Positions 29,301-47,305 of a DNA stretch of 64,000 nucleotides are shown piece after piece. The stretch is taken from positions 1-64,000 of the forward strand of contig MEDY01000116.1 of assembly GCA_001724265.1 (NCBI GenBank), given 5' to 3'. The translations under genes and the position numbers were made by a program. The notes under the pieces are model-generated. The model saw only the letters and a program-made list of their open reading frames with translations. It ran no database searches and was not told the origin of the DNA. This stretch comes from Rhizaria sp. SCN 62-66 (taxonomy: Eukaryota). How positions within the stretch are numbered: position 1 is the first letter of the stretch; every line of letters starts with the position of its first letter.

Positions 29301-32300
29301 TACGGGGACGCAGGACGAATTGGACTGCGAACTCGATGCGGAGCACGCGGTCCGGTAAGTTAGGCCGCGTCTGCACCAGCAGCAGCACATTGGCCTGCGC
29401 CGGGGAGCCGTAGCGGCCTAACTTCTTGCGCGCCGCCGCCGCGACGGGCGGGAACGCGTGGCCAGCGGAGAATGCGGCGGGGTTGGCGGCGGCCAGGGCA
29501 GAGCGCCATTGAGTGGCCTGGGCCCAAACCAAGTGACGGCAGGAGAAACCATACGGCACATCAGCAGCAGCAGCAGCAGAGTCAAACAACTCCGTGTCAG
29601 TCTCTGTCTCAGTCTTTGCATTCGCGCCCACATCCGCAGTCGCATTCGAGTCGTTATCAAACTCCTGCACAACAGCGTTACCATTGCTATTGTTCGAGCT
29701 CGCGTGGTAGTTGTGGTGCAGAGCAAAGGAGATGGCGGCAGCGGAGAGGCACGCGAATGCCCCAGGCACCGCGCCCGCGGCCGCGGCCGCCGACGACGCA
29801 GCCCCCGCCCCGGGCCCCGAGGCTAGCCCCATCGCCCGCTCCGGCTGCGACGCGGGGGCGTGGGTCGAGACTGGGGCGGCGGCGGCGGTGGGCGGGGTGA
29901 GCGAGCGGGCGGGCAGCGCGTCAGTCCAGAGGAGGATGTCGCCGTTGGACTGCAAGGTGGCGAGGGGGGAAACGACGTCGCTGCGGGCGTTACTAGCGCC
30001 GGGGGAAGACCGAGGGTGCCAACCGCTACTGCCACTTTCAGTCTCATTCTCGGTCTTAGTGTCGGCAGTTGAGCCTGAGTCAGATCCAGTGCCAGAGCCA
30101 GAACTAGAAGTAGCAACAGTAGTCGAACTAGAGTTAGAGCCAGTCGAGTTAAGATGTGCGTTGGTGGAGCCAAAGTCGCCTGATGAGCCAGTGGAGCAAA
30201 ACGCAGCCTCGGCGACTGGCGAGGGCGCCAACAACGCGCGGGCAGCTAAAGGAGGCGGAATCGCGGCCTTGGCCAAGTACGTCAGCTTGACTACAGAGCC
30301 GTCAACAACGGCAACCGAGCCTAAAGCGGTCGCTGGCGCGGCGGCGATGTCCCAGCACAAGTCGACCGCATGCACAGTCGAGTCGCACTGGATAATCAAC
30401 CGGTGCGGACGCTCAGGCTGCCAGAGGGCGGCGAGGGAGCCCATAGTACCGAGGCAGGGGGGCGGGAAGTCAAGCCGCCGCTTGAGGTACCAGTGGTAGT
30501 TGCTCCGGTGCCACAGCTGCACTTGCCTCGCTCCGTGGGACGGCGACTGCGAGCACTGACCGTGAGCAAGTGACTGTGAGCAGGGTGACTGTGAGCTAGG
30601 TGATTGTGGGTCGGAGTTGTTGAGTGCGATGCCCCAGATAGCAAGGACTTCAGAGTCCGCTGACCAGGCAGCACCGGTCACAACCATGCCCATGCCCATC
30701 CCAACACTCACCGACGCCGACGCCGATGATGATGACGAGGCAGCAGCAACAGCTGTGTCCGCAGTGGCCGTGGCCGCGGGCGGCATGATAAAGGGCTGCG
30801 GGGGCGGAATCAGCGAGAATTCACCATGCCTCAGTCCATTCCTCTCCAGCAACACCGTTGCCAAGCGCGGCACAGTGCGTCCCCCGGCACCGGCGGCCAG
30901 GCGAGAGCGTTCAAAGGCCGCGATGAGAGCGCCAGAGGGCCGCCACGCGAGCAGCGACTGCATGCCACCGTGCACCGCAAACGCCCACTGCTCGTCACAG
31001 TCACTCGTCGTCCGACTCCCAGTCGCGTGTTCCTCACGGGTACTCGTGGCGGGCGCGGGCATAGTAAGGAGGCGGGCGCTGGGCGGGCACGCGTGGGGGT
31101 CACAGGTCACCGGCGCCGGCTCAGACTCGGACTGTAACGCGCAGAGCCGGTCCCAGACGCGGACGACACGGCACCGTGCACCGGCGGGCACGGTCACCGT
31201 CGCGGCGGCCGACGGCACTGCCTGGCCCTGAGCGTTGAGCACGGGGGTCGTGATCGGGACAGAAGCGCGCTCTAAGGTGGAGACGGCGAAGAACTGGCCG
31301 TCGCCACGCCAGGAAATGCATGCCTCGGGCACGGCCACCGCCATCAACGCCTCGTCCTCATCATCCTCGTGGTTACCATCACCAGAAGGGGCAGCCGCAG
31401 TCGCATCGGTGTTGTCAACACCATGCGCCGTGGTCCCGGCAGAATCTGCTTCATTGGTGCCGCCGTGGGTGTTAGAATCGAGAGTTGCAGTTTTCGCCGT
31501 GGTGCCCAGAGCACGTGCGGCCACGCGTTCCGCATTCTGCCGCGTCCCCGCTAAATGCGCATAGGGGTTCGCGTCACTGACGGCCTCGCGTGCGTCCTGG
31601 GTACCCACGGCGGGGACCTCGGCCACAGGTTCCCACTGCGCAGTCATGAGTAACAGTGAGCCGCCGCAGGTGACGAGGGCGAGGAGCTCACAGTCAGGCG
31701 ACCAGGCCGCTGCCGCGAGGCCGCCGTCGATGTGTCCGACGACTTCGATGTCCTCAATCGCTGCGGCTGAGTCGGAGAAATCCGCGCAGTCTCCGGTGTT
31801 AGGATCGACGTCGCCAGGCACGGCAGCGGGGTCAGAGCTCTTGTTGTTGTTGCTGTTGCTGCAGTTGCTGTTGCTTGCTTTGTTGCTGCTACAAGAGCCG
31901 GCGCCGGCGAAAGCGGGGTCGTTACGGACGGCTTCGGGGATGTCAAAGTCGCAGCCAAACGCAGCGCCGTCGTCCTCGTCGTTATAGTCACCGTCAGCGG
32001 CATCAACGTTGTCAGCATCAGCGGTGTTGTGCGAGTTAAGTGACTTATTGTTGTTGCAGTTAGCGGGGACATGCGAGGCACGTGTGGTGTCGACCTTGAC
32101 AAGGGTTCCGTGGCGAGTCGCGACGATGACTGCGGCAAGCTCCGGCAGATAGGCCAGACCGACGACGCGGTCCCGCGGGGACAGAAGCTGCTCCTCGGCC
32201 TCGGCAGGCATCACGAGAGGGCATTTGAGTACGGGCGCAGAGTGGGTCAGGGAGTATCCGTGCAGCGTCAAATCGGCGTCGAGGTAATACACAATCTGCC

Positions 32301-32493
32301 GGGCGGTGTCGAGGGCAAGGTGGAAGTCGCGCAGGTGCTCCAGACTGAAACCACAGCTCTCAGCACTCGCACGCGCACGCGCACGCGCAGCCGCAGCAGT
32401 TGCAGTAGACAAGGCCTTTGTGGTTGCAGCTGCCTTTGCGCTGTTGTGTGCGAGTGCGAAAGCGCGGTGGCTGGCGATGATGAGGTTCTTCAT
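23311..32493 (-). CDS. ELP1: Elongator complex protein 1 (IKI3/IKAP), greatly expanded, apparently intronless; 3,060 aa
   Basis: IKI3 motifs AAAWSPDCELLALVT, ISWRGDGQFFAVS, LAWRPSGALIA, ERNGLRHGEF, WHRSNYHWYLKR, LQMPRGNLELVYPR, RIDLNLLWDHDP, DPREYLPLL and IREGDPREE. Confidence 0.92.
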   Translation of the reverse strand: MKNLIIASHRAFALAHNSAKAAATTKALSTATAAAARARARASAESCGFSLEHLRDFHLALDTARQIVYYLDADLTLHGYSLTHSAPVLKCPLVMPAEAEEQLLSPRDRVVGLAYLPELAAVIVATRHGTLVKVDTTRASHVPANCNNNKSLNSHNTADADNVDAADGDYNDEDDGAAFGCDFDIPEAVRNDPAFAGAGSCSSNKASNSNCSNSNNNKSSDPAAVPGDVDPNTGDCADFSDSAAAIEDIEVVGHIDGGLAAAAWSPDCELLALVTCGGSLLLMTAQWEPVAEVPAVGTQDAREAVSDANPYAHLAGTRQNAERVAARALGTTAKTATLDSNTHGGTNEADSAGTTAHGVDNTDATAAAPSGDGNHEDDEDEALMAVAVPEACISWRGDGQFFAVSTLERASVPITTPVLNAQGQAVPSAAATVTVPAGARCRVVRVWDRLCALQSESEPAPVTCDPHACPPSARLLTMPAPATSTREEHATGSRTTSDCDEQWAFAVHGGMQSLLAWRPSGALIAAFERSRLAAGAGGRTVPRLATVLLERNGLRHGEFSLIPPPQPFIMPPAATATADTAVAAASSSSSASASVSVGMGMGMVVTGAAWSADSEVLAIWGIALNNSDPQSPSSQSPCSQSLAHGQCSQSPSHGARQVQLWHRSNYHWYLKRRLDFPPPCLGTMGSLAALWQPERPHRLIIQCDSTVHAVDLCWDIAAAPATALGSVAVVDGSVVKLTYLAKAAIPPPLAARALLAPSPVAEAAFCSTGSSGDFGSTNAHLNSTGSNSSSTTVATSSSGSGTGSDSGSTADTKTENETESGSSGWHPRSSPGASNARSDVVSPLATLQSNGDILLWTDALPARSLTPPTAAAAPVSTHAPASQPERAMGLASGPGAGAASSAAAAAGAVPGAFACLSAAAISFALHHNYHASSNNSNGNAVVQEFDNDSNATADVGANAKTETETDTELFDSAAAAADVPYGFSCRHLVWAQATQWRSALAAANPAAFSAGHAFPPVAAAARKKLGRYGSPAQANVLLLVQTRPNLPDRVLRIEFAVQFVLRPRSSSVNDAVSSPSNTPSVLTAADYALQICLQSLVVDAIELLPTALAPPSKSALYTHTGLPGDAADSEVTVGSPAPLHSTLPPSLAATAATALSVARVWLVSPGRPYPAPPQQLTAEPTTTAAAATGATSAAAAAAAVEDWARRHAKAEAADPWLAVALVTGAVIKVRVRPPRSRVLKAQSPRRWLQQQQQQHNSNYNNGNAVNSSSSAEIHHALALARARAVNNRHFATDATASAAGAAAHGVSTGGRPSPWAQNLGWRLPVDTLWFQVADMAGVHVCLGKDPQARLFVDRVLVAPQCISFAQTAFPPLPPVNNTTEAQSNANAVSAAALRPAFLLVTVAGATHALFTLDLRRSLAANLAPLGPVRTDPHLVRYAEQGSAIVAAVPDALRARIVLQMPRGNLELVYPRTLGLAAVHSALSRGRWLDAFLAARASRIDLNLLWDHDPAAAATAEAADAVVAQLGSAANLALLLSALAPEDCTQTQFPRYHAMFASAGDRAPLEAALARLQSKAAAVSAASVAAAGSGSESDSVSTGSDDDDSECDDHDEFGSPVRRTRLRLRMRESNGGGNDSDDNLNTSDCYDGHDDGSRDGAFAHGFLSPLAAGAEAQRKARFDRARARDAAVAGLTSTPHAHGHSTGGQRNDSAAAAAENVHDGDYGDAVSSTGPMGSIGATNGVSNAKKRGAGANDEMADMALLARRLGQSSATTATGTATGAAAETAANTANAAHHHPDMGLALGAEANAELTRDGTGVSIVKAASRVVEFYTENSDLRHVYLVAQMEEADAAAAWTANPTVPRLSTMTTAPTTNSTSATPPTAATATSAGVNANVTETVAASGDDAVALARRRAAATGANKVNTACRTYLAAIDRADPSGRRLVTAALTAHLRQCPPDFTGAMRRVAALAAAEASAAASSANANPANTVTGTSMSAPAASAHDAYGNATAGLPPPRTTTLGPRPPRVGVSGLGPADPAADRHARVTAEAALRFALVVADSNELWRAALALYDLPLAAATARSAGRDPREYLPLLAGWRRLGAEGPAVSPLQLTPIALAAAAADAATDAAAAAAATARTRSVTQSSSHSQSEAEAEAEDRDALTAVSASAVAAASLNATAVSAAFGSANAAVARAAAAAATALQRAAIDAHEARPHRALAHWARALSALRVITSTGTSTGTCTVGSAEAARALRVRAALLAAAARRSALDTARKHDLLELATHLYASPLPPRPTLAHDENTANKSSGDHGDNAGVGRVVVLNARDAFARSVVLAYAQWLSTTAPPAATHAAGAGAVTTPGHQNQDATSRHADAAEAFVAAGDIASACAQWVKAGDWRRALGLAAAATTYDSSDDSSIKNDADNDDSNVADAAAATGDDSSTSTAVAVSAESQPQPRSLAKASGVTVRVTGFSAHTLQLLARSAAAELKARRRPLEAAQVLADWLGDRASAVSVLITAGLWDEALLCAGAGGAAGALLSRTVVFPAIAAAGEAFAKDTAVRVAGYRAAVARLRLVRRVKLIVLGAQAGMPGCLARWRRGLAEMARADPKYREQMQHPMLLSRVPGDDVLEFVITGVWRGLHTGLGADGSGAGSIAGYSTATGASLASLAPSVAASIASMGSAASGALANSLYSAFSSASAASGASSVLTVAGADRPLTTEERRMRKGLRSAIQRKSKRKIREGDPREEADLVLQVQAAAPSGSLQARAERLIAALRVCGDYARARAVAAALATLETAAAEEEARPMPSLEEASPWQKEQIANYFNWPATARLSEAELAAKLQARDAERAAEAARVAASSYPKSKKELAAMAAAAEKDKSTKTTKNTSDAAAGAAGDAGEGDDDEDDDGSADANGGRNGATAFYHWWEAPVVAAAAASGLVSRLALLTCGHTGTDAKADVSSLSEEFGGDDFGGDYFTFASTLTDSTTTAIDANADSTTTTAAAAAAAAGDAVNANAEAEARALRRAVGAALMQTEEGRAGAVTMRKRSTMLPSGGPRAKEQPRL

Positions 32494-32929
32494 CGTGCGA
32501 CAAGGGTGTCACAGAGGACGGCGCAAAAAGAGAGAGAAAAACCTGTTGTTTGTGGTTGGAACGCGGCAAGCGCGAGGAAGCGAAGAGAGTGGGAGCTGAG
32601 AGAGGCTGGAGTAAAAGCGGGGTGCGGGGAGAAAAAAGAACGCCGAGTGAGACAATTTTATAACAAAATCAAAATAGAAATGTGCAGTTAAAATCTATTT
32701 GGTGAGTTGATATCGTTGTTGACGGACACCTTGAAGTGCTAGAGCACGGCAAAGATGAACTGCGGGCGGATCAATAGTGGCCGCTTTTTTGCGAACCGTG
32801 TGGCGGCTGGCAGGTTTTTGCTCTTTGGCTTTGGGCTTGCGGGTGCGAAGCGAGAGGTGACCTAAGACGAGATAGAGCACGGTGAAGATTCCGTGGTACA
32901 CGCAGTGTATAGACGTAATTGAATAGAAC

Positions 32930-34105: not shown

Positions 34106-35374
34106 TTACTTGCCGTCATAGAGCCAAACGGGCCCCAGATAGTGTCGCACCACAAACCCAGCCGCGCATGTCACCGCCTGCAGCGCCAGCAGCGCCAGAG
34201 TCAGCTTCTCCTCCGTCACCGGCCCCATAAGCCTCAAAACGAGGTTGATAATAGTGAAGTTATCGTATTCTTTCCCGCTCGCTGTCTTGAACCGGGACGG
34301 CGTGCGAAGTCCAGTCTTGGGGTCAACGGCCGGCAGGCGGTGGCGAGGGCAGGGGACGACCTTAAACAACTGCGGACACGAGTAGAGGAAGTTGGCAATC
34401 TGCGGTAAAAGATATAAAAGCAAAGTCTTAGAGAAGTGGCCTAAAATACCGACAACAGCGAACGTCATGCCAGCGAAATAGCAATACGTGTCACCAGCAA
34501 ACACCTTCGCCGGGAACCAATTGTACTTAAGCAGCGCCAAAGAGACCGCGATAAAGCACAACATGATCATGGCTGAGAACATGTGAGGGTGGGTAACCGG
34601 GGTAGCATCGGCAGGGGCGCCAGAGAGTTCGTATAAATTGGTGGCGAGGATGGCGACGGCAACGACAACGGACTGACCAACCTCTAATCCGTTGATTCCG
34701 GCGTAGATGTTGATTGCATTGGTGCAAAACACCGCCAAAAGGCACATATACAGGTAATAAAAGATGCCGATGTCAACGATTGACCCCTGAGAGAATTTGT
34801 CAACGGTGAACACCATGTTCAGAAGCTTACCAAGCACCGTCGGCGCGTTCGTCGCAGCGTCGTAAAGCAAGGGGCGTGCAAAAACAGGCATGACAAGGGT
34901 GGTGACGCCGGTGTAAGAGCAGAGCAGAGGCAGAGAGGCAGCGGTAGGGAGAACAAGCTTGTAACGCCACGGCAAATCAACAACGTCGTCAACAAAGCCC
35001 AGAAAGATCATGAAGCAGATGCAGAGAATTGCCGCGTTAAACAGCGCCAAGTCAGCGGCGGTTTTCGCGTAAAAGACCTGGAGTCCGATAAGAGCGATGA
35101 CGCAGACGACGCCAGTGACGACTCCCAAAGCGCTCGGGATCTCTTCGTCGGCGTCGGGGCGGCCGGTGCGGCCGAGATCCTTGCCGCGGAGGCCACGGCG
35201 GTGCAGAAAGGGCTGGAAGTGCGGGATGAGGTGCAGGGTAACAAAGAAGGCGGCCATAGCGGCGACGAGAGCCCAGAAGAGGTTTGTTAGGATGGACGTA
35301 TTGCCGACACGAGAACCCAAGATAGCCAGCGGCAACAGACACGCCGAGGCCAGGAGCGCGCGCGAGTCAAGCAT
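34106..35374 (-). CDS. ALG7: UDP-GlcNAc:dolichyl-phosphate GlcNAc-1-phosphate transferase; 422 aa
   Basis: FLGFVDDVVDLPWRYKL, FCTNAINIYAGINGLEVGQ, PAKVFAGDTYCYFAG, GHFSKTLLL, PCPRHRLP and NFTIINL. Confidence 0.96.
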   Translation of the reverse strand: MLDSRALLASACLLPLAILGSRVGNTSILTNLFWALVAAMAAFFVTLHLIPHFQPFLHRRGLRGKDLGRTGRPDADEEIPSALGVVTGVVCVIALIGLQVFYAKTAADLALFNAAILCICFMIFLGFVDDVVDLPWRYKLVLPTAASLPLLCSYTGVTTLVMPVFARPLLYDAATNAPTVLGKLLNMVFTVDKFSQGSIVDIGIFYYLYMCLLAVFCTNAINIYAGINGLEVGQSVVVAVAILATNLYELSGAPADATPVTHPHMFSAMIMLCFIAVSLALLKYNWFPAKVFAGDTYCYFAGMTFAVVGILGHFSKTLLLYLLPQIANFLYSCPQLFKVVPCPRHRLPAVDPKTGLRTPSRFKTASGKEYDNFTIINLVLRLMGPVTEEKLTLALLALQAVTCAAGFVVRHYLGPVWLYDGK

Positions 35375-36610
35375 GGCTGCTCCAATGAACGCGCGGGGCG
35401 AATGCTATGTAAAGTGTAGTGGATGTGCACGAGCTTGTAGAGGTTGGGAGGCAAACGGGGAGTGGTGTGTGCCAGTATCGGAGGAAAGAGGAGCGAGGAA
35501 GCGGGACTGATTTGACGAAAGATTGGAAGATGAATTAGTGGAGTTAGATGTCAGACTTGTGAAGTGATGCAAATACTACAAAAAAATATGTGCTTGATTT
35601 TACTAGATATAGCTATAAAATCCAGAACAACGGTCTGATGGTGAAGAACGAGACTGCTGATGTGGCTCGAAACCTCGTTCGTCGTGGTCGGTCGGCTGTC
35701 AGGCTTTTTCGGTCCGTCTCAGACCAGATAAAAATCACGTGCCATCGTACTTGAACGATGCATATCTCCGTGAAACAGGAAGATACTCGAACAAAGATGA
35801 ATTATTATTGAGATCGCGTCTGTTTTTATCTCAAAACTGCTTTATTATTTGCATAGACAATAATCTTCATTAGAATATCGTTGTAGATTGATGAAGTAAT
35901 GCTGCTTCGATCACTGCTACGCTGAAAGCTCTCTCTTCGTGATACGCATACAAAAGCATACCAAACCGTTTTGAAAATGTACCTATATTAGTATAGTATG
36001 TCAGAAAGGTGTGCGGTTAGCAACAGCAATTGTTTTAGCAAACTGTCTGTGTTGACGTCAAACGTGCTACATAATGGTCATGACACAGAGATACTTCAAG
36101 TCCATCGAGTGGCATAACAACGTGTTATGCAGGTATACCGATATTATAGTGTTTTTAATATCCTTGTTATGCCTACCTTCCTGTCTCAAGTCTTAGTGTC
36201 TGTGTTTGATAAGGCTTTATGAGTCGGATCCAAGCCAGATCTCACATCGCAGTTTCGTCACAAGCATCGAAATCAGGGAATATATCGCGACTCAGGTCAC
36301 AACTTAGGATTCCCAGCATGCATTGCAAACATTTTTTTAGTTCAAGCTACGATCCAGTCTGAAACTTACATTGAACAAGATCTCATGCCGCTAGATTAAT
36401 CGATATCTTTGATGCTCTCTGCTGAGCTCCGGTCGCAGTCGAGACTCACCACGAATCGAGCCAACTAAGAATAACCCAACGACAGCGACAAATCATCGTC
36501 AAATCCGCACTTAACTTGATATTCCAATATTTAAGTGGGATTTCTATTCGACTGTAAAATAATTTTCCTTTAGCTCACCGTACAACTCCAACACACTGCT
36601 TTCTCCGCAG

Positions 36611-39600
36611 ATGGCTGAGAGCAAGCCTCCCCTGCCCCCCACCGGCGGCGGCGGACACAGCTCCCTTCCCTCAGGCATCTCTGTCCCCAGTATCGTCTCC
36701 GCCAACGTCAAGTCCTTTCTTCGCACAGACCGTGCCGCGGACTCGCAGGGCCGCACGCGCAACTTCTACGACGATATCCACACTCCCGTCCCTGACGACT
36801 CCGGAGCAAACCTCGACTCGACCGCTCTCCCTTTGAACGCTCTCAACGCCCCCGCTGGCGCTAGCACCGCGAGCGCCAAGGCCGCCGCGGCCCGTGCAGA
36901 TAGCCTTGCCTTGCTGCAGTCGATCTGGCGCGGCGTCATCGGCGCCAACGACGCCGTGGAGACCCCCTTTGGCCCCCGCAAGATCACTTACGCCGACTAC
37001 ACTGCATCAGGCCGCGCGCTGTCGTTCATCGAAGACTACATCCGCCAGGAAGTTCTGCCGCTCTACGCCAATACGCACACGCTGTCTGACGCCACGGGGC
37101 TGCAGACGACGCTTTTCCGCCAGGAAGCACGTGATATCATCAAGCGCGCCGTTCGCGGCTCCATCCATGATACAGTGCTGTTCTGTGGCTCTGGCGCGAC
37201 TGCGTGCGTGGACACGGCTGTCCGGCTGCTGCAGCTGCGCGAGATGGCTGACGCAGCAAAGCGGGAACACACGGCGCTACCCGTGGTACTCGTGGGTCCC
37301 TACGAGCACCACTCGAACTTGTTGCCGTGGCGTGAATCAGGCGCCATCGTCATCACGATCCCCGAGACGCCCGCCCCTCACACTGCGCCCAACAACGCCA
37401 CGGCCGCTGCGCTTCACGCGGCGCAGAACAGCACTGATAACAACAGTATGCAGTGTATTGGGGCACTGTGTCGTAGCGCCGCCGGCCTCGTCACGTTTCC
37501 CCCCTCAGATAACACAAACGCAACCTCAGACACTGTTTCTGCGAGTGCGATGGGTGCGTCCACAGTCCAGAGGCAGGGGGCCGGCGGTGGCCTAGACCGC
37601 GCCGCTCTGGAAGCCGCACTCGCCGCCGCCGCGGCCGCCGGCGCTCCTTTGATCGTGGGTTCGTTCTCAGCGGCGTCCAACGTCACCGGCGCGCTGGAAG
37701 ACACCGTCGCCGTGACTGCGATGCTGAAGCGGTACGGCGCGCTGTCATGCTGGGACTACGCCGGCGCGGGGCCCTATGTGCCGATCGACATGAACCCTGA
37801 TAACAACGACGCTTTGCGCAAGGATCTCGTGTTTCTGTCCCCGCATAAGCTCGTGGGTGGTGTGTCCACGCCCGGTGTGCTGGTGGCCGCGAAAGGATTA
37901 CTTGCGCGCCGCGCCGTGCCCGTGCGTCCGGGTGGCGGAACCGTGCTGTGGGTCGGTACACGTGGCCATGAGTACCTCGCCAACCTCGAAGAGAAAGAAG
38001 AAGGCGGTACACCTGAGATCGTGGGTGCGATCCGCGCCGGACTCGTGTTCCAGCTCAAGCAGGCTGTAGGGCCCACGATGCTTGCGCGGCGTGAGAAGGC
38101 GCTTGCTGCATTGGCGCACAGGGCGTGGCGTACGCACCCGCACATCTTACTCTTGGGCAACACCAATACTCCGCTGGTCACAGGTTCCAACGCTCAGTTG
38201 ACGACTGAGGCGCCCGCGAGGCTGCCTATTCTGTCCTTCGCTGTGCGGTATGCACCGGATCCTTCGCTGTTGTTGCACCACAACTTCGTTGCGGCCCTAC
38301 TGAACGACCTCTTCGGCATCCAGGTACGCGTACACGACTTTCACTAAACAAAGCTATAAGCTGCATATGTCAACCAACTAAGAAAATAATGTCATGTTTA
38401 TATTTATATTAGCAATTACGAAATTGAATTAAATTAATTTGTCTCATCCCAAAAGTCTCATATCTATGTCTCCATATCTAACAAATCGTACATTTTCTGT
38501 CTTACTCTTATTAGGCTCGTGCTGGCTGCGCCTGCGCTGGTCCTTACGTCCAGTCTCTGATGGGCATCTCGACCGCTACTGGCGACGCCTTCTTGTCCGC
38601 CATTTTAGAGAAGCAAGAGGTTGTTCGCCCCGGCATGGTCCGCGTTTCACTGTCATACTTCGCCCCGCGCGCTGAGGCGGCTTACATTCTCCGCGCAGTG
38701 CGCTGGGTGGCATCTCGCGGCTGGCTGCTGCTGCCTCTGTACGCTGCCGTCACGGCTTCGGGTGAGTTCCGCCACCGTGCGCGTCTGACCAAGACGCCTG
38801 AGAGGCGGTGGCTGGGGTCGATCTCGTACAAGGGCGGGGCGATGACGTATGAGTCACGCCGGGCGGTACTCGCGGCCACGAGTACCGAGAATGCCACCGC
38901 GGAACACGTGAGTAGCAGCGCGACTGCGGGACTCGCGAGTACCGTGCCGACCGCAGTACCCGTGCCAGTGGGTGCCTCCGTCCCGGCCCCTCTGACCCCC
39001 GCCGCAGCCGCCGCCCTCTTCGCCTCCTACGAAGCCGCCGCCGACGCCCTCGTCGACCGTGTGGTCCGCGGTGACTTGGCCCCCGGGGCGCCGGGTCCGT
39101 CTCTGGGGGCGACACTCACGGCCACGGCCCGGTCGCTCCGGTGGTTTGCCTTCCCCGATGAAGCCGCTGAAGACGTGCGCACTTACATTCGGGCTAACTC
39201 TAACTCTAACAACAACGCCAATGCGAGTGTTAATCGTCAGGCTGCTGCGGAAGTATGGCCGTGGGCCGCGAATGCGGCGCCTCAGCCTGTTGCCGTCGCC
39301 TGCCCTTCTGTCAGCTATAACTATCACATTGCTAGAGCTAGCACCACGAGTTCTGCTTTCGCGACTACTGGCGAGAGCACCAGTGACGCCGACTACGAGT
39401 ACGACTGCGACATTGCCAGTGACTCCACCGCGAGCGACTTCACCGCTGACGCCGCCGCCGCCGTTGCCGCCGTCGCCGCTGCCTCTGAGCTGCCTAGCCG
39501 TTGGTTAGGCCGCGTACAGCTTGCAGTGGCGCCCCAGCGTGCGTACCGCGCCGGTACACAGTGTATCGACGCCGCGGCTCTCCCCGCATGCGTACGCGTA

Positions 39601-41632
39601 CACGCGGTCACGAGTACTAGCAATAACAACACCACGGGTTCGAGCGCGATTAACATTGAGGCTGAGGCCAAGGCAGCTGGCGCTAACTCTCCACGCTCCA
39701 GCTCTAGTAGCTCTAGCTCTATGAGCCCTAGCTCTGGTTCTAGTGTCAATCCCCCTGCTGCAACTGACCTCGCATCGCCTCCGTCCACTGATTCTGCGTC
39801 TGCGACGACGCCCAGTGTAACGGCCGCGAAGGAAACCACTGCGACTGGAACTGCAGTTGCGACGAATTCGACTGCGGCTGCGGCTGCTGTCAATGAGCGT
39901 GCCAAGGGTGTGGCTTACAACAAGGGCCTTGATCTTGAGGCTGAGAGGCACCGCCTACCGATTCAGAAGTACACTGCTCTGTCCGACACCACGTGTCAGA
40001 ACTGCTTCCACGAGCACCGCTCCGTCCCCAACAGCAGCAACACCACCAACGCAGATAATAACAACACCAACAGCAGCAGCAAGCAAGGTGGCAAGAACGC
40101 TGAGAACCCCGATGCCTCGTCATCATCCTCATCGACCCCTGCGAATGCGAGTTTCTCTCGCGAATGCGTCACTTGCGAGTGCGTCTCCTACGTCCCACGC
40201 TCCTCCGCGCTCGCCGCCACCGACGGCCCCACACTGCACCGCGCCACGCTCCGTCTCGCGCGCACGGTGCTCCACGCAGTCCGCGAGTTCGACATGCTCC
40301 GCGAAGGGGACCGCATTCTCGTCGGTGTCTCGGGCGGCAAAGACTCGCTCGCGCTGCTGCACCTGCTGCTCTACACACAACGCCGCAGCAAGGTCCGCTT
40401 CCACATCGGCGCAGCGACGGTTGACCCGCAGACCCCGGAGTACGACCCCTCACTTCTGAAGCGGTATTTCGCGGCACTCGGGGTGCCGTATCATTACTCC
40501 GCCGTCCCCGTGATGTCCATCGCGAAGAAACAGCTTGAACGCAACCCGAAGATCTCGATCTGCGCCTTCTGCTCTCGCATGCGGCGCGGTATCCTCTATT
40601 CTACATGCCGTACGTTCGGCTATAACGTGCTTGCTTTGGGCCAGCATATGGACGATTTGGCCGAGAGCTTCGTGATGAATGCGTTCCACAACGGCGCTGC
40701 ACGGACCATGAAGCCCCACTACTCGTGCCAGGTACGCCGCTCCGACAGAACAAAAACAAATATATACTCTGATAATCAAGCATTAGTGTGAATATATTTC
40801 ACAAGCCAATATTGAAGTTGTATGAAATCGTACACCTTAATTTTACATCTCTAAATGAACATCTTCCCTTCGATATATCGAATTCCTTCTCTTCTTCTTT
40901 TTTTTTGTACGACGTTTGTCGTACTTCTTAGGGTGGTGATTTGCGCATCATCCGTCCCCTGTGCTTCATCCGCGAGTGGCAGCTCCGCGAGTTCGCCAAG
41001 GCCATGGGTCTGCCAGTCATCAGCGAGAACTGCCCTGCCTGCTTCGAGGCCCCCAAGGAGCGTCAGCGCGTGAAGCTGATGCTCGCCGCGCAGGAAGCTG
41101 TGCACCCAGCGTTATTCAACTCGCTACAAATCGCGCTGATGCCGATGCTGCGCGCCACGTCGCTCGGCGTGACGATCAGCGACGAGCAGCTGTTTAAGGA
41201 TATGAAGATTTCGTTTGGCGCGCTCAAGGACGGGGACGGCGACGACGACGGCGGTGACGGCAACGGCAACGACAAAGGCAACGGCAACAACAGCACTAGC
41301 AGTTCGACCGACGCCGCCGCCAACACCGAGACAGCAACCGGCTCTAGCTCTAGCTCTGGCGCTGGCGCTGGGAAGGAGGCTGTGGCTGCGAATGGTGTTG
41401 CTGTGCATACAAACAGCAATGTCGGCCAGGCTCAGGGTCAGCCGAAGGAGCGGAAGCCTAAGGGACCGCGGCCGAACAAGACGCCGAAGCAGAAGCCAGC
41501 CGGCCATAGTACCGAGCCGGGGGCAGCAGGCGAGCAGAAGAGGTTTGTGGCCGAGACGGAGACGTTTGGCGTTGCGCCTGCTGCTATGCTTGCTGCTGCT
41601 GCTGTTGCCAATAGCAATGCTACTGCTACTGC

Positions 41633-41663
<31 letters not shown>

Positions 41664-41735
41664 TCTGCTTCTACTAGCAACGCCACGGTGACTGCTAAGG
41701 AAGACGAGGATGAGACTCAGGTGCTGATTGTGTGA
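36611..41735 (+). CDS. Fusion of a class-V PLP aminotransferase (cysteine-desulfurase-like) domain and a TtcA/TtuA/Ctu1-family tRNA 2-thiolation (PP-loop) domain; 3 exons (36611-38323, 38515-40731, 40932-41735), ~1,577 aa
   Basis: N-terminal half: YADYTASGR, YANTH, GPYEHHSNLLPW, SAASNVTG, WDYA, SPHK (PLP Lys), EEGGTP and NDLFGIQ|ARAGCACAGPY. C-terminal half: ILVGVSGGKDS, CAFCSRMRRGILY, ALGQHMDDLAESF, IIRPL and ENCPAC. Both domains lie in one reading frame through exon 2. Confidence 0.9.
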
Positions 41736-42603
41736 GCGACGAAGCAATGCTAACTTGCCATTGTGCTTATATAATGCTTAGAACAGGATATTGTGTTGGG
41801 TTTAACTTGCTAATGAACAAAAGTATAAGCTCCTCGTGTCGACTTGAAGCGACGGTGGAACGACTAAATATGGAATTTTATCAAGTATAAAGACCATATA
41901 TGAACTGTAGATACATTAACTATTAATAAACACGTATGAAATTATAAATAGTAAGTCAGTATCGCAACTGCTGTTTATTTAGAGGGGTATCGACAGGCAA
42001 ATCACTCTGCGTGAACCATAAATGACTTGCTTTTTTCGGTCCGCGGCGAGTCAGCCGGCCACGAAGTGAGAAGTTCGATGGGGATCTGACGATTGATAGT
42101 CACCTTGTCCCAAGGGTCCACACGGCCGATGTGTCGCGCTGATTTTGAGTGTATGGAGGTTGCGCGCGTGTGGTGCATTTGCTACACGTAGAAGATTTTC
42201 TGGAAACGCGATATGAGGCTGACATCCGTGCTTGTGAAGAGCGCCCTTGAGAGGGGCCGATCGGATGCTTCAGCCACAGCGTCCACTTTGAAAATTTCAC
42301 ATTTTCCCAACACCCCAGCGAGATTTCTTTACTAGCATACCGAAGATGTCTACGTACCACGTTGGACCTACCGCTTTCACCCTGCTCTGACGCTTTTTTG
42401 TCCTCATATCTGTCCCATTTGTTGTTGCCGCCCCTGTGCCTTTGCTTGCCCGCTCCATCCCTCGTCCAGACTCCCCCTTTCTTTCCCCTTCTCCCACCAG
42501 AAGGGATCGTCACTGTCAGCAGCCTTGTCTGCGCACCTTTCGTCTTCTTTCCTCCTGTTTCTCTCTTTTCGCGACGCTCGTTGCGCGATTTCCAGGGACG
42601 GAT

Positions 42604-45600
42604 ATGTCCCTCCACGCGCCCTCACAGGCCCACACTCCAGCTCCAGGCGCCTCCAACGCCTCAGCAGCAGCAGCTTCCTCGTCCTCCCTCCCTGTCTCCG
42701 CCGCCGGCTCCCCCGCCATCGGCGCTGCCACGGCGGCCTCCACGCGCCCCTTGGTCGAGCTGTTCCTGCAGTTTTTGTCCTCTGACGCTGCTGATGCTGC
42801 CCTGTCCACCGCGCTCGCAGCCGCCACGTCCACCGCCGCTTCCTCCACCGTCGCCTCCAGCTCTGGCTCAAGCGCAACGCTCTCGCTCCCGTCCTCGTCC
42901 CGCCCCGACTCAACCGACCCCGAGTACTCGTACTCCTCGGCGAATGGGAGTGGCGGGCTTCTGTTGACTGGGGATGACGACCCCGACAGTGCACGTTCGG
43001 TCGCACTTGCACTGTCCCTCGCTTCAGCCGTCGGCGTCTCGCCCCGGCTCGCGCGCGCTGCGTCGCATGCGGTACTCGCGGTTGCGGGCACTAGCGCCGC
43101 CGCGCTCGCTGCTGAGGCCGCTAACCCGGAAGCCGACTCTGTGTCAGCCCAGTCTGCCTCAAGCTCAGCCTCAGCCTCTGCTTCTACGACTGTGTCCTCG
43201 TCGTCGTCGTCGTCGTCGTTGGCTGGGGATGCTGACGGCGACGCGTTGGCCATGGAGCTCGACCTCAACCTCAACTTAGACTCGAACAACGGCAACAACA
43301 ATGCGGCCCTAGCTCGCGGCTCTGCAGTCAATCCTGAAGCCAGCTCAGATATTCCCGCCAATAACAACGGGGATGAGACCGGCGGCGCTCGCGACGCTGC
43401 CAACCTCACCCTCTCTGTTGCTCACACTGCAACTGCGGCGGCTTATGACGCTCTAAGGGCCGACACCCCCTTACCCGCCCCCGCCACCACAGACACCCTT
43501 CTCCACGGCCACGGTCCTAGCCACATCAGCAGCAGCAGCAGCAGCGCTGCCATCGACTCCCACGAAGCCGACGCTCTCCGCCTCAACACCACCGCGCGCA
43601 CGCATCCTGACGCTGAAGCTGCCTCCGCCGCCGCCGCCGCCGCCGCTGCTGCTGCTGCTGCTGCCGCGGGGACTGCGGCAACTGGGACTGCTGGCGCTGG
43701 AGCGGCGGGGACTGTTCTCCCGCCCGCGCCCGGCGCGGCGCTGGCAGCTTCCGTCGCGCCCCTCAAGCGCTTGGCGCCCTGGCACGTCCGCAAGCTCGCC
43801 GCCGCCACCTTCGGCCCCCCCGCGCCCGCGGGGGCCGGGGGGGCGGCCGCGGCTGCTGCGGCCGCGGCTGCCGCTGCGAACGCTGGCGAGGGCGGGGAGG
43901 CGCATGAGAACAGTCCTGAGGAGGCGGCCGCCGCGGCGGCTGCCAGCGCGAGCGCCACCACCACTGCCCCCGCGGCCGCCGCGGCTGCCGCGAGCGCCGC
44001 CGCCGGTGCGGACGCTACCGCTGCGCTCTCGGCGGCAGCCGCGGCCACGGCCGCGGAAGTGTCTCGGCGCGTCTCGGTCGTTCAGGTTCGTACCGATTAC
44101 CAGTTCCTAAAAACAAAGATTTGAATGCACATATGAACTCCAAACCTACGCGGTTTCTGCAATGTTAGAAATAATGTGTATTTGTATCTCTTATGTATTT
44201 TTGTATTTATGCGCTCACATCTATCCCTGTTTTCGTATTCTTACTTCAACTAGGCCGCGTGGCGTGTGCACCAACGCCGCCAGCAACGACTGCTGCGGCG
44301 ACAGGCCACCCAGGCGCGCCGCGCCGCGCGCGCCGCCCGCCGCCGCGCCCGCGCGGACCGCGCCGCGCGCCACGAAGAGCGCCTGCGCCGCGCCGCCGCG
44401 GGAGAGCCGCACCCGCGTGAAGGGGACGGTGACGCCGGGGCGAGCGAGGCCGAGGACGCGGCGGCGGCGGCAGCCGAGAGCGCTGACGAGGCGGCGGATG
44501 ACGCGGCGTCCGAGGCCGACGCCGCCGCGGCTGCGCTGCGCGGGAGTAACGGCGAGCAGAACAACGGCGGCGACAACGGGGACGGGGGGGACAACGGCGA
44601 CGACGACGATGATGACGACGACGATGATCCGGCCGCCGCTGCCGCCGCTACCGGCGGCGACGGCGACTCCGCTGCCACAGCTTCTGGCGAGGCGGCGGCG
44701 GCGGCGGCAGCCAGCATTCGCGACATCGGTCTCCCCGTAGAAGGATTGCTCCCCATCACGACGGAAGTCTTCTTGCTGCCGCCCTACGTTAACCGCACAC
44801 TCTTCGACAAGCTTCTGCTGTTCCAGGCGCTCTGGGGCACGCATCCGCCGGCCAACAGCACCAACATCGCCACCAATGGCGACGGCGCGGCCGTAACCCT
44901 CGTGTCCCACGCCACGATCACGCGGTACTATCGGCAGACGTGCTCCGAGCTCGACCCTGCAGCGCGTTTATTCTTGCTCCTGCTGCCGACGCCACCGCCG
45001 ACGGACGCGCACCTGCGTCCGATCCCGCGCGCCGTGCTCGACACGCACCTCCTCGCCGGCGGCGCGCCGCAGCCGGCCCCCCCGCTCGGCACGCAGGCGA
45101 CGGCGGCGCGCGCCGCGCAGGCCGAGGCCGAGGCGGCGGCGGGCGCGGCGGCCGTAGACGCCGAGGCTCTCGTCGCGGCGGCCGCGCGCGCTGAGGCGGG
45201 GGCGCATGGGGCCGCGGCGGGCAGCGGGGACGCGGGGCCGCTCGGACCGGGACTGCCGGCTGGGACGGACGAGGCCGCGGCGTTGTTGCAGCCGGTGACC
45301 CTTGCCACGCCGAACCTCAACGCCGGGGCCGCCGGAGACGACGACGCTGAGGCCGCGGCGGATATGGAGGAAGGCGTACCCATGGTCATCGGTGCCGACG
45401 GGGAGCTCGCCCCCGCGCCGCTCGACTCGAAGTACCTGTTGCGGACGTATCTCACGCGTAGCGACCTCCGGCCGCTGCTGCTGGAGATTCTGGCAACGCA
45501 TCCGGGGCTTGACTTCCTCTCTACGTCGCCCGACTTTCAGGTACGACATATCGCTATTATCCTCAAATTTTCTGTTTAATTGTTCCTCTAACTCAATTAA

Positions 45601-47305
45601 TCGTATGTTTTATCTCTAAACGTGTCCATTTATGTCGCCAAACGTCTCGTTACGACTTCCTCTTTGTTTTTGTTTTGTTTCTCTTTGTTTTTATCTCACA
45701 CACGAAACAAACGCAGGAGCGGTATGCGCAAACGGTCGTCGCACGCATCTTCTACGCCGTCAACACCGCCGGCGATGAGCGCCTCACACTGCGTGAACTG
45801 CGCCGGTCCAACCTCATGCAACGCCTTGGTGAACTGGCCCGTGAGGAAGACATCAATCTGATCCACGATTTCTTCTCCTATGAGCACTTCTACGTCGTGT
45901 ACTGCAAGTTCTGGGAGCTGGACTCCGACCACGACATGCTGCTTGGGCCCGATGATCTCGTCAAGTACGACGACTGCGGCTTAACTTCGCGCGTGCTCGA
46001 CCGCGTATTACAGGGCGCGGGCCGGCCGCTGCGGTCAGGGGTTCCTGGACGCATGGGGTATGAAGATTTCGTCACGTTCTTTATCTCCGAGGTGGATAAG
46101 ACGTCGCCCGTGGCGATTGACTACTGGTTCCGCTGTGTTGATCTTGATGGTGATGGCGCCATTACTGCGTTCGAAATGGAGTGGTTCTATGACGAGCAGC
46201 GCATCCGCATCCAGGTACGAACGAGAACGAACACATGTATCTCACTCATCTCACCATCATATGAGAATATTTATTGACGTTATTATTTATTTATTTTTTA
46301 AACTATATAGTGGTGGTGGCGGTCACCGCCTCTAATTTTAGTTTAATTGGTTTACATCTTGGTGTCTATCGTGAACATTTCTCACAAATCGCCTTCGCTC
46401 GCTTTGCTTTATTTTTCACTCGTCTCTCTCTCTCTCTCTCTCTCTCTTTTATCTAGGCCGTGTCTCCCGACGCCGCCGTGTTTGCAGACACGATGTGCCA
46501 GCTTTGCGACATGGTCCACCCTCGCAAAGAGGCCGTTTTCACCCGCCGCGACCTCATTCGCTCACGCATGGCTCCCCTTTTCTTCGACATGCTGTTCAAC
46601 CTGAACAAGTTTGTGCTGGCCGAGTCCCGCGACGTGGCTCGCATCCGGCACATCCACGACACGCCCGAGCAGTCGGACTGGGACCGGTGGGCGGCTCAGT
46701 GCTACTACGTGCTCGCCGGCGCCGAGCAGGCCGAGGAAGACGTTGCGCAGCAGACGCAGGCCGCGCTTGACCTCTCGCAGGGGCTTCAAGTGCTGCAGTC
46801 GATGGATCTCGACCTGGATGGCACGGGCGGGGACCCGCACGGTGGCGGCGGGCTCGGCATGGGGCTCGGCCTCTCCGGTCTCGGCGACTTATCCCTCGAC
46901 TCGATCGGTCTGCTCGACCACCACAACGGGCACGGCGACCTCAACCACGGGCTCCACGGCCATGGTCACGACGGCGGCGGCGGCAACGGCGGCGGCGGCG
47001 ACGGCCACCACGGCGGCGACGGCCTCGGCGGGCTTGGGCTCGGCCACGGTCACGGACACGGACACGGTATGCATAACGGCCTCCACGGCGACGGCGGCGG
47101 CGGCGGTGGCCATCCGCTTTCCCACGGTCACAACGGTCACGGCCACGGCCAGCACCTGAGTGGGCTGGGGCAGACAGCCGCCGCGCCGGTCAATGGCGGC
47201 GGCGGCGGCTACGGCGGGCTTGACTTGGCGCTGTATGGCGGCGACGGCGGCGGGCTCGGTGGCGAGGGGGACATGGGCACTAGTCTCAACGCCAACATGC
47301 AGTAA
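42604..47305 (+). CDS. Protein phosphatase 2A regulatory subunit B'' (PR72/PPP2R3 family, EF-hand) with long low-complexity extensions; 4 exons (42604-44085, 44254-45540, 45717-46214, 46457-47305), ~1,371 aa
   Basis: THPGLDFLSTSPDFQ|ERYAQTVVARIFY, FFSYEHFYVVYCKFWELDSDHD, YWFRCVDLDGDG, CQLCDMVHP, FFDMLFNLNKF and SDWDRWAA. Three phase-0 introns. Start codon less certain. Confidence 0.9.

Follow-up and report, generated by a model that had tools for sequence, protein, structure and literature searches.

A protist gene joining a SufS-like cysteine desulfurase module to a TtcA-type thiolase domain belongs to an old eukaryotic family

Can a single eukaryotic gene encode both the enzyme that mobilizes sulfur from cysteine and the enzyme that places it on tRNA? 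This question was raised by a locus in the first 64,000 nucleotides (nt) of contig MEDY01000116.1 from Rhizaria sp. SCN 62-66 (assembly GCA_001724265.1), a stretch referred to here as the window. A sequence-only reading of positions 36611 to 41735 on the forward strand had proposed that one polypeptide carries a complete cysteine-desulfurase-like pyridoxal phosphate (PLP) module and a PP-loop thiolase, and the motifs and the Pfam and NCBIfam matches agree with this proposal. When rechecked, all motifs named in that reading, as well as the start and stop codons, were found at their coordinates in one spliced frame. These results confirmed that a three-exon eukaryotic gene joining a SufS-like desulfurase to a TtcA-type thiolase is real. 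Judged from its predicted product, this one gene probably encodes a bifunctional enzyme of 1577 amino acids, in which the desulfurase module would supply a TtcA-type domain making 2-thiocytidine at tRNA position 32 (s2C32).

The spliced product of 1577 amino acids is assembled from three exons on the plus strand, as follows.

36611..38323, plus strand: exon 1, residues 1-571, with about 96 poorly conserved N-terminal residues followed by most of the PLP module; based on the ATG at 36611, the GT donor as read and a Pfam Aminotran_5 match (PF00266, E=2.1e-21)
38324..38514, plus strand: intron 1, 191 nt, AT-rich, GT..AG, phase 0
38515..40731, plus strand: exon 2, residues 572-1310, with the Cys loop, the C-terminal extension of the PLP module, the linker and the first two-thirds of the TtcA domain
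40732..40931, plus strand: intron 2, 200 nt, AT-rich, GT..AG, phase 0
40932..41735, plus strand: exon 3, residues 1311-1577 and the stop codon at 41733-41735, with the remaining third of the TtcA domain and then a tail of low complexity

Exon 2 is a single uninterrupted frame of 739 codons that holds parts of both domains. Because this frame (38515-40731) by itself spans the C-terminal part of the PLP module together with the PP-loop and CxxC motifs, the fusion is independent of the splice model. Read-through of intron 1 meets an in-frame stop at 38347, and the alternative in-frame continuations into the introns are all closed by stops. Both exon junctions sit within blocks that are continuous in an alignment of 18 homologues, and tblastn matches of eleven homologues stopped at about 38329 and at 40731 and restarted at 38515 and 40935. 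The minus strand of the gene region contains low-complexity shadow frames only. An extra exon 5' of 36611 may exist, because an acceptor-like ...ctccgcag precedes the ATG; homologues need no upstream exon, as their own PLP domain starts 40-70 residues from the N-terminus. A missing 5' exon encoding a C2H2 finger of the alveolate type was considered and rejected: in the proteins concerned the finger is an insertion inside the PLP domain, and the window domain is complete without it.

The C-terminal half of the protein contains the following features of a PP-loop thiolase.

40249..41156, plus strand: TtcA-family PP-loop domain (NCBIfam NF007972), residues 1150-1385, split by intron 2
40330..40347, plus strand: SGGKDS, the PP-loop (ATP pyrophosphatase motif), invariant in 40 of 40 fused proteins
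40561..40572, plus strand: CAFC (C1254 and C1257), equivalent by pairwise alignment to Cys122 and Cys125 of E. coli TtcA
From 40639, plus strand: GQHMDD, read in the translation
41031..41042, plus strand: CPAC (C1344 and C1347), equivalent to C-N-L-C of E. coli TtcA, with C1347 equivalent to the third cluster ligand

The Pfam PP-loop match had an E value of 3.3e-12, and the NCBIfam TtcA model NF007972 scored 154.8 bits in exon 2 (E=3e-45, model positions 17-177) and 34.7 bits in exon 3 (E=1.1e-8, model positions 182-268). The other PP-loop models scored 47.1 bits (TilS-N), 34.6 bits (TtuA) and 26.6 bits (NcsA), the cut-offs of the NcsA and TtuA models being 450-500; thus, the TtcA model reached about six times the score of NcsA, whose own cut-off is 500. 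The domain is 33% identical to E. coli TtcA (K-12 record) over 266 aligned positions. According to the passages of PMC4081106 on its cysteines, E. coli TtcA has exactly three essential cysteines, which were proposed as [4Fe-4S] ligands that leave a free site for sulfide. Cys222 in the numbering of those passages corresponds to residue 213 in the RefSeq E. coli K-12 protein (L081), within the only C-terminal CxxC, with an apparent offset of 9. By the same comparison, the C-terminal cysteines 200, 219 and 222 are RefSeq residues 191, 210 and 213, and Cys46 is residue 45; Cys122 and Cys125 agree in both numberings.

All three cluster cysteines are kept in the window protein. Together with TtcA scores of 154.8 and 34.7 bits against those of NcsA and TtuA, this bears out the earlier claim that the thiolase is TtcA-like and not Ctu1- or NcsA-like; neither the hidden Markov model (HMM) scores nor the pattern of ligand cysteines nests the C-terminal domain within Ctu1. 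The PP-loop, the central CxxC and the C-terminal ligand cysteine align with those of E. coli TtcA, and TtcA is the best-scoring curated family. In contrast to the window domain, which is fused, E. coli TtcA is free-standing and receives sulfur from a separate IscS. Ctu1/Ncs6, NcsA and TtuA share the PP-loop superfamily and [4Fe-4S]-dependent chemistry with the window domain (PDB matches at E of about 1e-8), but it scores far more weakly against their models. These enzymes draw sulfur from ubiquitin-like thiocarboxylates and have no fused desulfurase, and the Ctu1/Ncs6/NcsA synthetases have flanking CxxC...CxxC zinc fingers.

The N-terminal half, which would supply the sulfur, has the following features.

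36899..39177, plus strand: PLP module (HMM envelope), residues 97-792, split by intron 1
37307..37318, plus strand: HHSN (H233/H234), placed by alignment on the histidines of HHAN in SufS
37838-37849, plus strand: SPHK, with K413 (37847..37849) as the predicted PLP Schiff-base lysine, aligned with the lysine of S-G-H-K in SufS
38518-38547, plus strand: RAGCACAGPY, the Cys loop, with C576-A-C578 at 38527..38535

The module consists of a SufS-like type II cysteine desulfurase fold and a family-specific C-terminal extension of about 160 residues that ends in LRWFxxP. C578 aligns with the catalytic, persulfide-forming cysteine of SufS (profile ...argGcscaGp... against ...RAGHHCAQP... in SufS). Both C576 and C578 occur without exception in 40 of 40 fused proteins, and their conservation among 20 bacterial stand-alone proteins is at least 90%; the K413 position is likewise invariant in all 40, as is one histidine of the HHSN motif (alignment A2). 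A profile of the 20 bacterial stand-alone relatives matched SufS structures with E=2.5e-35, and the PLP lysine, the histidine pair and the second loop cysteine coincided. An AlphaFold model of one bacterial family member (predicted local distance difference test score, pLDDT, of 87.4) gave a target-normalised template-modeling score of 0.85 to SufS. The module resembles the SufS and CsdA structures of B. subtilis, S. aureus and E. coli in fold, PLP lysine, histidine pair, Arg-Gly-x-x-Cys-Ala-x-Pro loop and C-terminal arginine. It differs from them in its low identity (about 22-24%), in an invariant cysteine two residues before the catalytic one and in the extension of about 160 residues. On this comparison the module is predicted to be a type II (SufS/CsdA-like) desulfurase-like enzyme with K413 and C578 as catalytic residues; by sequence it is a separate family in the SufS/CsdA group, neither SufS nor CsdA proper.

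The two halves are joined, and the second is followed, by poorly conserved segments.

39178..40248, plus strand: low-complexity linker of about 357 residues, not conserved in the conservation map
39994..40182, plus strand: Cys/His motif CQNCFHEH ... ECVTCEC (C1065, C1068, H1070, H1072, C1122, C1125 and C1127), just upstream of the TtcA domain
41157..41732, plus strand: low-complexity C-terminal tail of about 190 residues, not conserved

In complete fused proteins the linker ranges from about 50 to more than 500 residues. The motif CxxCxHxH...CxxCxC was present in 7 of 10 aligned proteins (the window protein, P0006, P0061, Polysphondylium P0051, P0005, P0043 and P0053) and absent from P0072 and the Choanoeca and Stentor proteins; in the window protein, an Asn/Ser-rich insert divides it. 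The motif is a candidate metal site, which may bind zinc or a second cluster, and the N-terminal zinc finger of TtuA has a similar position. The sequence-only reading had seen no obvious Ctu1-type terminal zinc fingers; no finger lies at the C-terminus, and the clade-specific Cys/His motif before the TtcA domain has a pattern unlike that of Ctu1 and is lacking in most fused homologues. In a full-length AlphaFold model of P0043, both domains were confident and the linker, including the Cys/His motif, had a pLDDT below 50; with a predicted template-modeling score (pTM) of 0.67, no inter-domain geometry could be read. A prediction of the complex of the PLP and TtcA domains of P0043 scored 0.00, which is no answer, and was not used as evidence.

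A C2H2 finger pattern lies inside the PLP domain (residues about 146-206) of P0048, P0040, P0007, P0042, P0046 and P0009 (Besnoitia, Chromera, Perkinsus, Choanoeca and Blabericola), and because of this insertion these homologues bear the UniProt name 'C2H2-type domain-containing protein'. At the same site the window protein has a low-complexity insert (residues about 250-325). In all four RNA runs, coverage peaked (depths of up to 672) and short false joints were numerous at 39344-39527 and 41184-41551, which are Ala/Ser/Gly-coding simple repeats where unrelated contigs pile up. The joints suggested by RNA contigs at the locus were taken as noise, all being in low-complexity repeats, with sides shorter than 30 nt and no GT..AG ends.

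In the proposed mechanism, the PLP module would take sulfur from L-cysteine to form a persulfide on C578, and the invariant C576 may act as a relay. The flexible linker would let the module hand this sulfur on to the open iron of a [4Fe-4S] cluster predicted to be bound by C1254, C1257 and C1347 of the TtcA domain. Using ATP, the TtcA domain would then adenylate cytidine 32 of certain tRNAs at C2, after which the cluster sulfide would displace AMP to give s2C32. The cluster itself would be supplied by the Fe-S assembly machinery of the cell. The earlier description of the enzyme as 'self-contained' was therefore overstated, since a TtcA-type enzyme needs a [4Fe-4S] cluster made elsewhere, as the passages of PMC4081106 on the cluster indicate. 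No organelle-targeting sequence is evident when the N-terminus is read by eye, which hints that the fused protein may by default be cytosolic.

Before September 2026, 2-thiocytidine was considered a bacterial and archaeal modification. In its sections on this nucleoside, PMC6356711 regards s2C as exclusive to bacteria, recommends using it to detect bacterial contamination of eukaryotic RNA and describes it as not quantifiable in its eukaryotic samples, Dictyostelium included. A preprint of September 2026 (bioRxiv 10.64898/2026.09.27.754811), as far as its accessible text goes, then reported the first eukaryotic s2C32, mapped in Aplysia tRNA-Lys(UUU), and a CsdA-TtcA fusion of 1177 amino acids in 28 mollusc species, with matches in birds and insects that were not shown. 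The fused protein is the only TtcA homologue reported in that text, which contains no enzymology, and its section on the fusion mentions no protists. The co-occurrence of s2C32 and a fused homologue in Aplysia offers outside support, by analogy, for the inferred s2C32 reading of the window gene. Beyond this preprint, among the papers listed by our literature searches there was no further one on the fusion and no report of s2C for Plasmodium or Dictyostelium.

The Aplysia californica 'IscS-TtcA' protein (LOC101861551, 1177 amino acids), as the preprint text presents it, has a CsdA-type PLP domain, an unconserved linker and a TtcA-like domain in the same order as the window protein, and the two share the PLP lysine, the Cys-x-Cys pair, SGGKDS and the C...Cx[F]C...CPAC pattern. 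Animal members (Babylonia, Branchiostoma and insects) belonged, together with the window protein, to one fused clan in our trees. The window copy differs in coming from an uncultured protist, in its greater length (1577 amino acids) and in the Cys/His motif before the TtcA domain, which the choanoflagellate and Stentor proteins are without. Whereas the accessible text of the preprint compares the PLP domain with IscS and does not locate its catalytic cysteine, we aligned a type II, SufS-like catalytic cysteine (C578).

We then examined how widely this architecture occurs. Among the matches longer than 1294 amino acids, 31 of 32 carried both Pfam domains. Out of 1.84 billion cluster representatives, the 150 that matched best included 78 of at least 800 amino acids and 97 with a match to the PLP module, and most of the others were short fragments. 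The order was PLP module and then TtcA domain in 129 of 129 two-domain proteins fetched, with both domains complete in 55, and none of the 40 fused proteins aligned deviated in the lysine, CxC, SGGKDS, CxxC or CPxC. Named protist carriers were Polysphondylium violaceum, Stentor coeruleus, Besnoitia besnoiti, the gregarine Blabericola, Chromera velia, Perkinsus olseni, the oomycetes Phytophthora and Lagenidium, Cafeteria and Choanoeca, and animal carriers were Branchiostoma, a gastropod, springtails and many insects. The Stentor protein has 947 amino acids and P0043 has 987. Similar fusions had been suspected to exist as automatic annotations elsewhere, and this survey for both domains did find them across eukaryotes. 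The window protein shares the features of the eukaryotic fused desulfurase-TtcA family: the order of PLP module, linker and TtcA domain, the CxC loop and the C...CxxC...CPxC pattern. The family was already in automatic annotation and its fusion in animals has been described by the preprint; the window gene is a further, protist member.

A tree was built of 180 PLP modules. All 64 of its proteins with 800 or more amino acids, including the window protein, formed together with one 686-residue fragment a single clan (support 1.0, branch 0.39) separate from 115 stand-alone proteins, which fits one origin of the fused module. The stand-alone proteins in this tree were the set closest to the window, an unbalanced sample, and P0004 and P0140 were omitted for domain matches that overlapped or were out of order. 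The thiolase tree (FastTree, 251 domains, rooted on E. coli TtcA) has weak deep supports and an outgroup branch of 1.82. In it, the window domain grouped with metagenomic P0006 (0.907), and this pair was joined next by P0061, P0038 and the Polysphondylium protein (0.904), so that the nearest named relative of the window copy is a dictyostelid protein. Judged by this single domain tree, the DNA probably comes from an amoebozoan-like protist. As far as these sequences and trees can tell, the fused gene belongs to an old eukaryotic family with a wide but patchy distribution.

Among free-standing proteins, the whole PLP module is closest to unnamed bacterial 'aminotransferase class V-fold PLP-dependent enzymes' of about 560-600 amino acids, which matched the window protein with E of about 1e-110 and 42-55% identity (best 120 of 8000 scored candidates). 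They occur in Myxococcota, Chloroflexota, Actinomycetota, Gemmatimonadota, Acidobacteriota and other taxa, and are encoded at no fewer than 588 prokaryotic loci. These enzymes have the whole module in common with the window protein, including the G-C-x-C-A-G-P-Y loop and the terminal LRWFxLP, but are never fused to TtcA. No conserved neighbour of the stand-alone gene was found among 80 loci, and gene order gave no functional clue. The commonest neighbour 'cluster' consisted of antisense shadow frames; the next, at 20 of 80 loci, has a listed representative on the opposite strand within the span of the PLP gene; and the commonest clusters inspected (ABC ATPases, FGGY kinases and histidine kinases) reached at most 16 of 80 loci. 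One bacterial genome with a stand-alone PLP gene (G002) has two canonical TtcA genes (L082 and L085; 391 and 366 bits, above the cut-off).

Short TtcA-family proteins from Gamma- and Betaproteobacteria lack a PLP module and came from Thiohalomonas denitrificans, Thiothrix, Sedimenticola, Kaarinaea and metagenome-assembled genomes of Burkholderiales, among others. In the thiolase tree they grouped as a single clade of 105 sequences (support 0.989) that lies beside or among the eukaryotic fused sequences. P0356, P0358, P0376, P0380 and about 100 others resemble the eukaryotic thiolase domain as closely as distant eukaryotic members resemble one another. This clade may stem from a transfer between bacteria and eukaryotes, in either direction, the root being uncertain. 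When samples of 201, 301 and 182 genomes from other taxa were searched for the short type alongside canonical TtcA, the first and third yielded the canonical type only (30-43% identity) and the second yielded neither. E. coli K-12 has the canonical ttcA only, with 39% identity to P0356.

Several of our results weigh against a desulfurase-fed s2C32 enzyme and have to be set beside the alternatives. The window domain misses the NF007972 equivalog cut-off of 272 bits (sum of 189.5 bits over the two exons), as do all four intact fused homologues scored (199.9-234.1 bits). By these scores, the TtcA domain represents a subfamily sister to E. coli TtcA, not an equivalog, and for the same reason its specificity for C32 is putative. 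In addition, the closest free-standing relatives of the thiolase half are the short proteobacterial 'TtcA family' proteins of about 250-270 amino acids (55-60% identity over about 92% of a 170-residue query), and the three of them that were scored also fell below 272 bits (216-223 bits). These sub-equivalog scores in four of four fused homologues and three of three short relatives, together with the 33% identity to E. coli TtcA and the long branch that sets it apart from the fused and short group, would suit a functional sister of TtcA of the same architecture whose thiolase half modifies a target other than C32, such as another position in tRNA or rRNA or another base. Against this stand the preprint, which in its accessible text maps s2C to position 32 and calls the fused protein a TtcA homologue, the position of TtcA as by far the best-scoring PP-loop thiolase model, and the TtcA-like pattern of cluster ligands. 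We consider such a different target unlikely.

The other points against a desulfurase-fed s2C32 enzyme concern the supply of sulfur and the transcript. The PLP module scored far below the curated cut-offs (66.6 against 475.1 bits for sufS and 28.4 against 493.6 bits for CsdA). Type II desulfurases usually require an acceptor protein (SufE, SufU or CsdE), and a Pfam scan, run on the fused protein itself, detected no acceptor domain of these types in it. None of 80 loci had a TtcA-like frame within 6 kb of the stand-alone PLP gene, and the partnership of this desulfurase with TtcA is for this reason without precedent in bacterial gene order. The PLP module might not feed sulfur directly to the thiolase: it could act on selenocysteine or cysteine sulfinate, build or repair the Fe-S cluster, or be cleaved from the thiolase after translation, the fusion serving co-expression and not channelling. 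The long, unconserved linker of very variable length, the low-confidence linker and unresolved domain arrangement in the P0043 model, the selenocysteine lyases within the SufS/CsdA group (by the names of matched PDB entries) and the suggestion of post-translational cleavage in the preprint text itself are on the side of this explanation. A domain order that does not vary among 129 proteins from distant groups of eukaryotes, the catalytic residues invariant in both halves and the single fused PLP clan speak against it, and the order and the residues suggest that functional coupling has been kept by selection. On balance, an uncoupled PLP module appears quite improbable. As for the transcript, no RNA contig from the four runs bridged 38323/38515 or 40731/40932, and a 258-nt contig from poly-A metatranscriptome run X1 (38192-38449) is collinear with the genome and extends 126 nt into intron 1; it could reflect intron retention, unspliced pre-mRNA or DNA carry-over. 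The unbridged introns and this contig would fit a gene-model artefact in which two neighbouring genes are read as one, but the 739-codon frame of exon 2 carries both domains, stops close the in-frame continuations into the introns, and complete open reading frames derived from transcriptomes (Choanoeca, Blabericola and Chromera; EukProt) have the same architecture. An artefact is thus extremely unlikely, and a single gene for a desulfurase module feeding a TtcA-type domain is the reading that we prefer.

The surroundings of the gene in the window contain the following frames.

23314-32508, minus strand: gene for ELP1 (Elongator subunit 1), a single open frame of 3065 codons with ELP1 domains
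34109-35404, minus strand: Glycos_transf_4 frame (ALG7/DPAGT1-like), 432 amino acids, E=3.6e-29, between the ELP1 gene and the fused gene
42391-47302, plus strand: downstream gene with long Ala/Ser-rich frames, in which EF-hand_13 was the sole domain matched, and weakly so (E=1.7e-8), at 44254-45576

Elongator makes the mcm5 (5-methoxycarbonylmethyl) side chain of tRNA U34. Two genes for tRNA anticodon-loop modification therefore lie about 4 kb apart in divergent orientation, with the glycosyltransferase gene between them; this proximity is probably a coincidence. No tRNA genes were found within the 64,000-nt window.

Altogether, this analysis extends the fusion to protists, shows the fused PLP modules as a single clade, describes the nearest free-standing relatives of each half and recognizes one clade with a Cys/His motif before the TtcA domain. 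The type II assignment of the desulfurase and the identification of its predicted catalytic cysteine fill a gap left by the Aplysia preprint. A broader proposal, which is tentative and which we hold to be possible though somewhat doubtful, is that the fused enzyme is an ancestral eukaryotic cytosolic sulfur system, independent of Nfs1-Uba4-Urm1 and about as old as the last eukaryotic common ancestor, in which the CxC loop replaces SufE/SufU and passes persulfide sulfur directly to the cluster of the TtcA domain. The occurrence of the fusion in Amoebozoa, ciliates, apicomplexans, chromerids, perkinsids, oomycetes, bicosoecids, choanoflagellates and many animals is cited for this proposal, under which s2C32 would be widespread and overlooked, and yeast, human cells and plants may lack the gene. 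The candidate s2C enzyme is not an oddity of molluscs, being conserved in amoebae, ciliates, apicomplexan parasites, oomycete plant pathogens and many animals. If the preferred reading is true, no other known tRNA thiolase would have a built-in cysteine desulfurase, and the protein would offer a compact system for the transfer of sulfur from persulfide to cluster. In that case, s2C32 would be expected in dictyostelids, Stentor, Phytophthora and coccidia, and would depend on the residues equivalent to C578 and K413.

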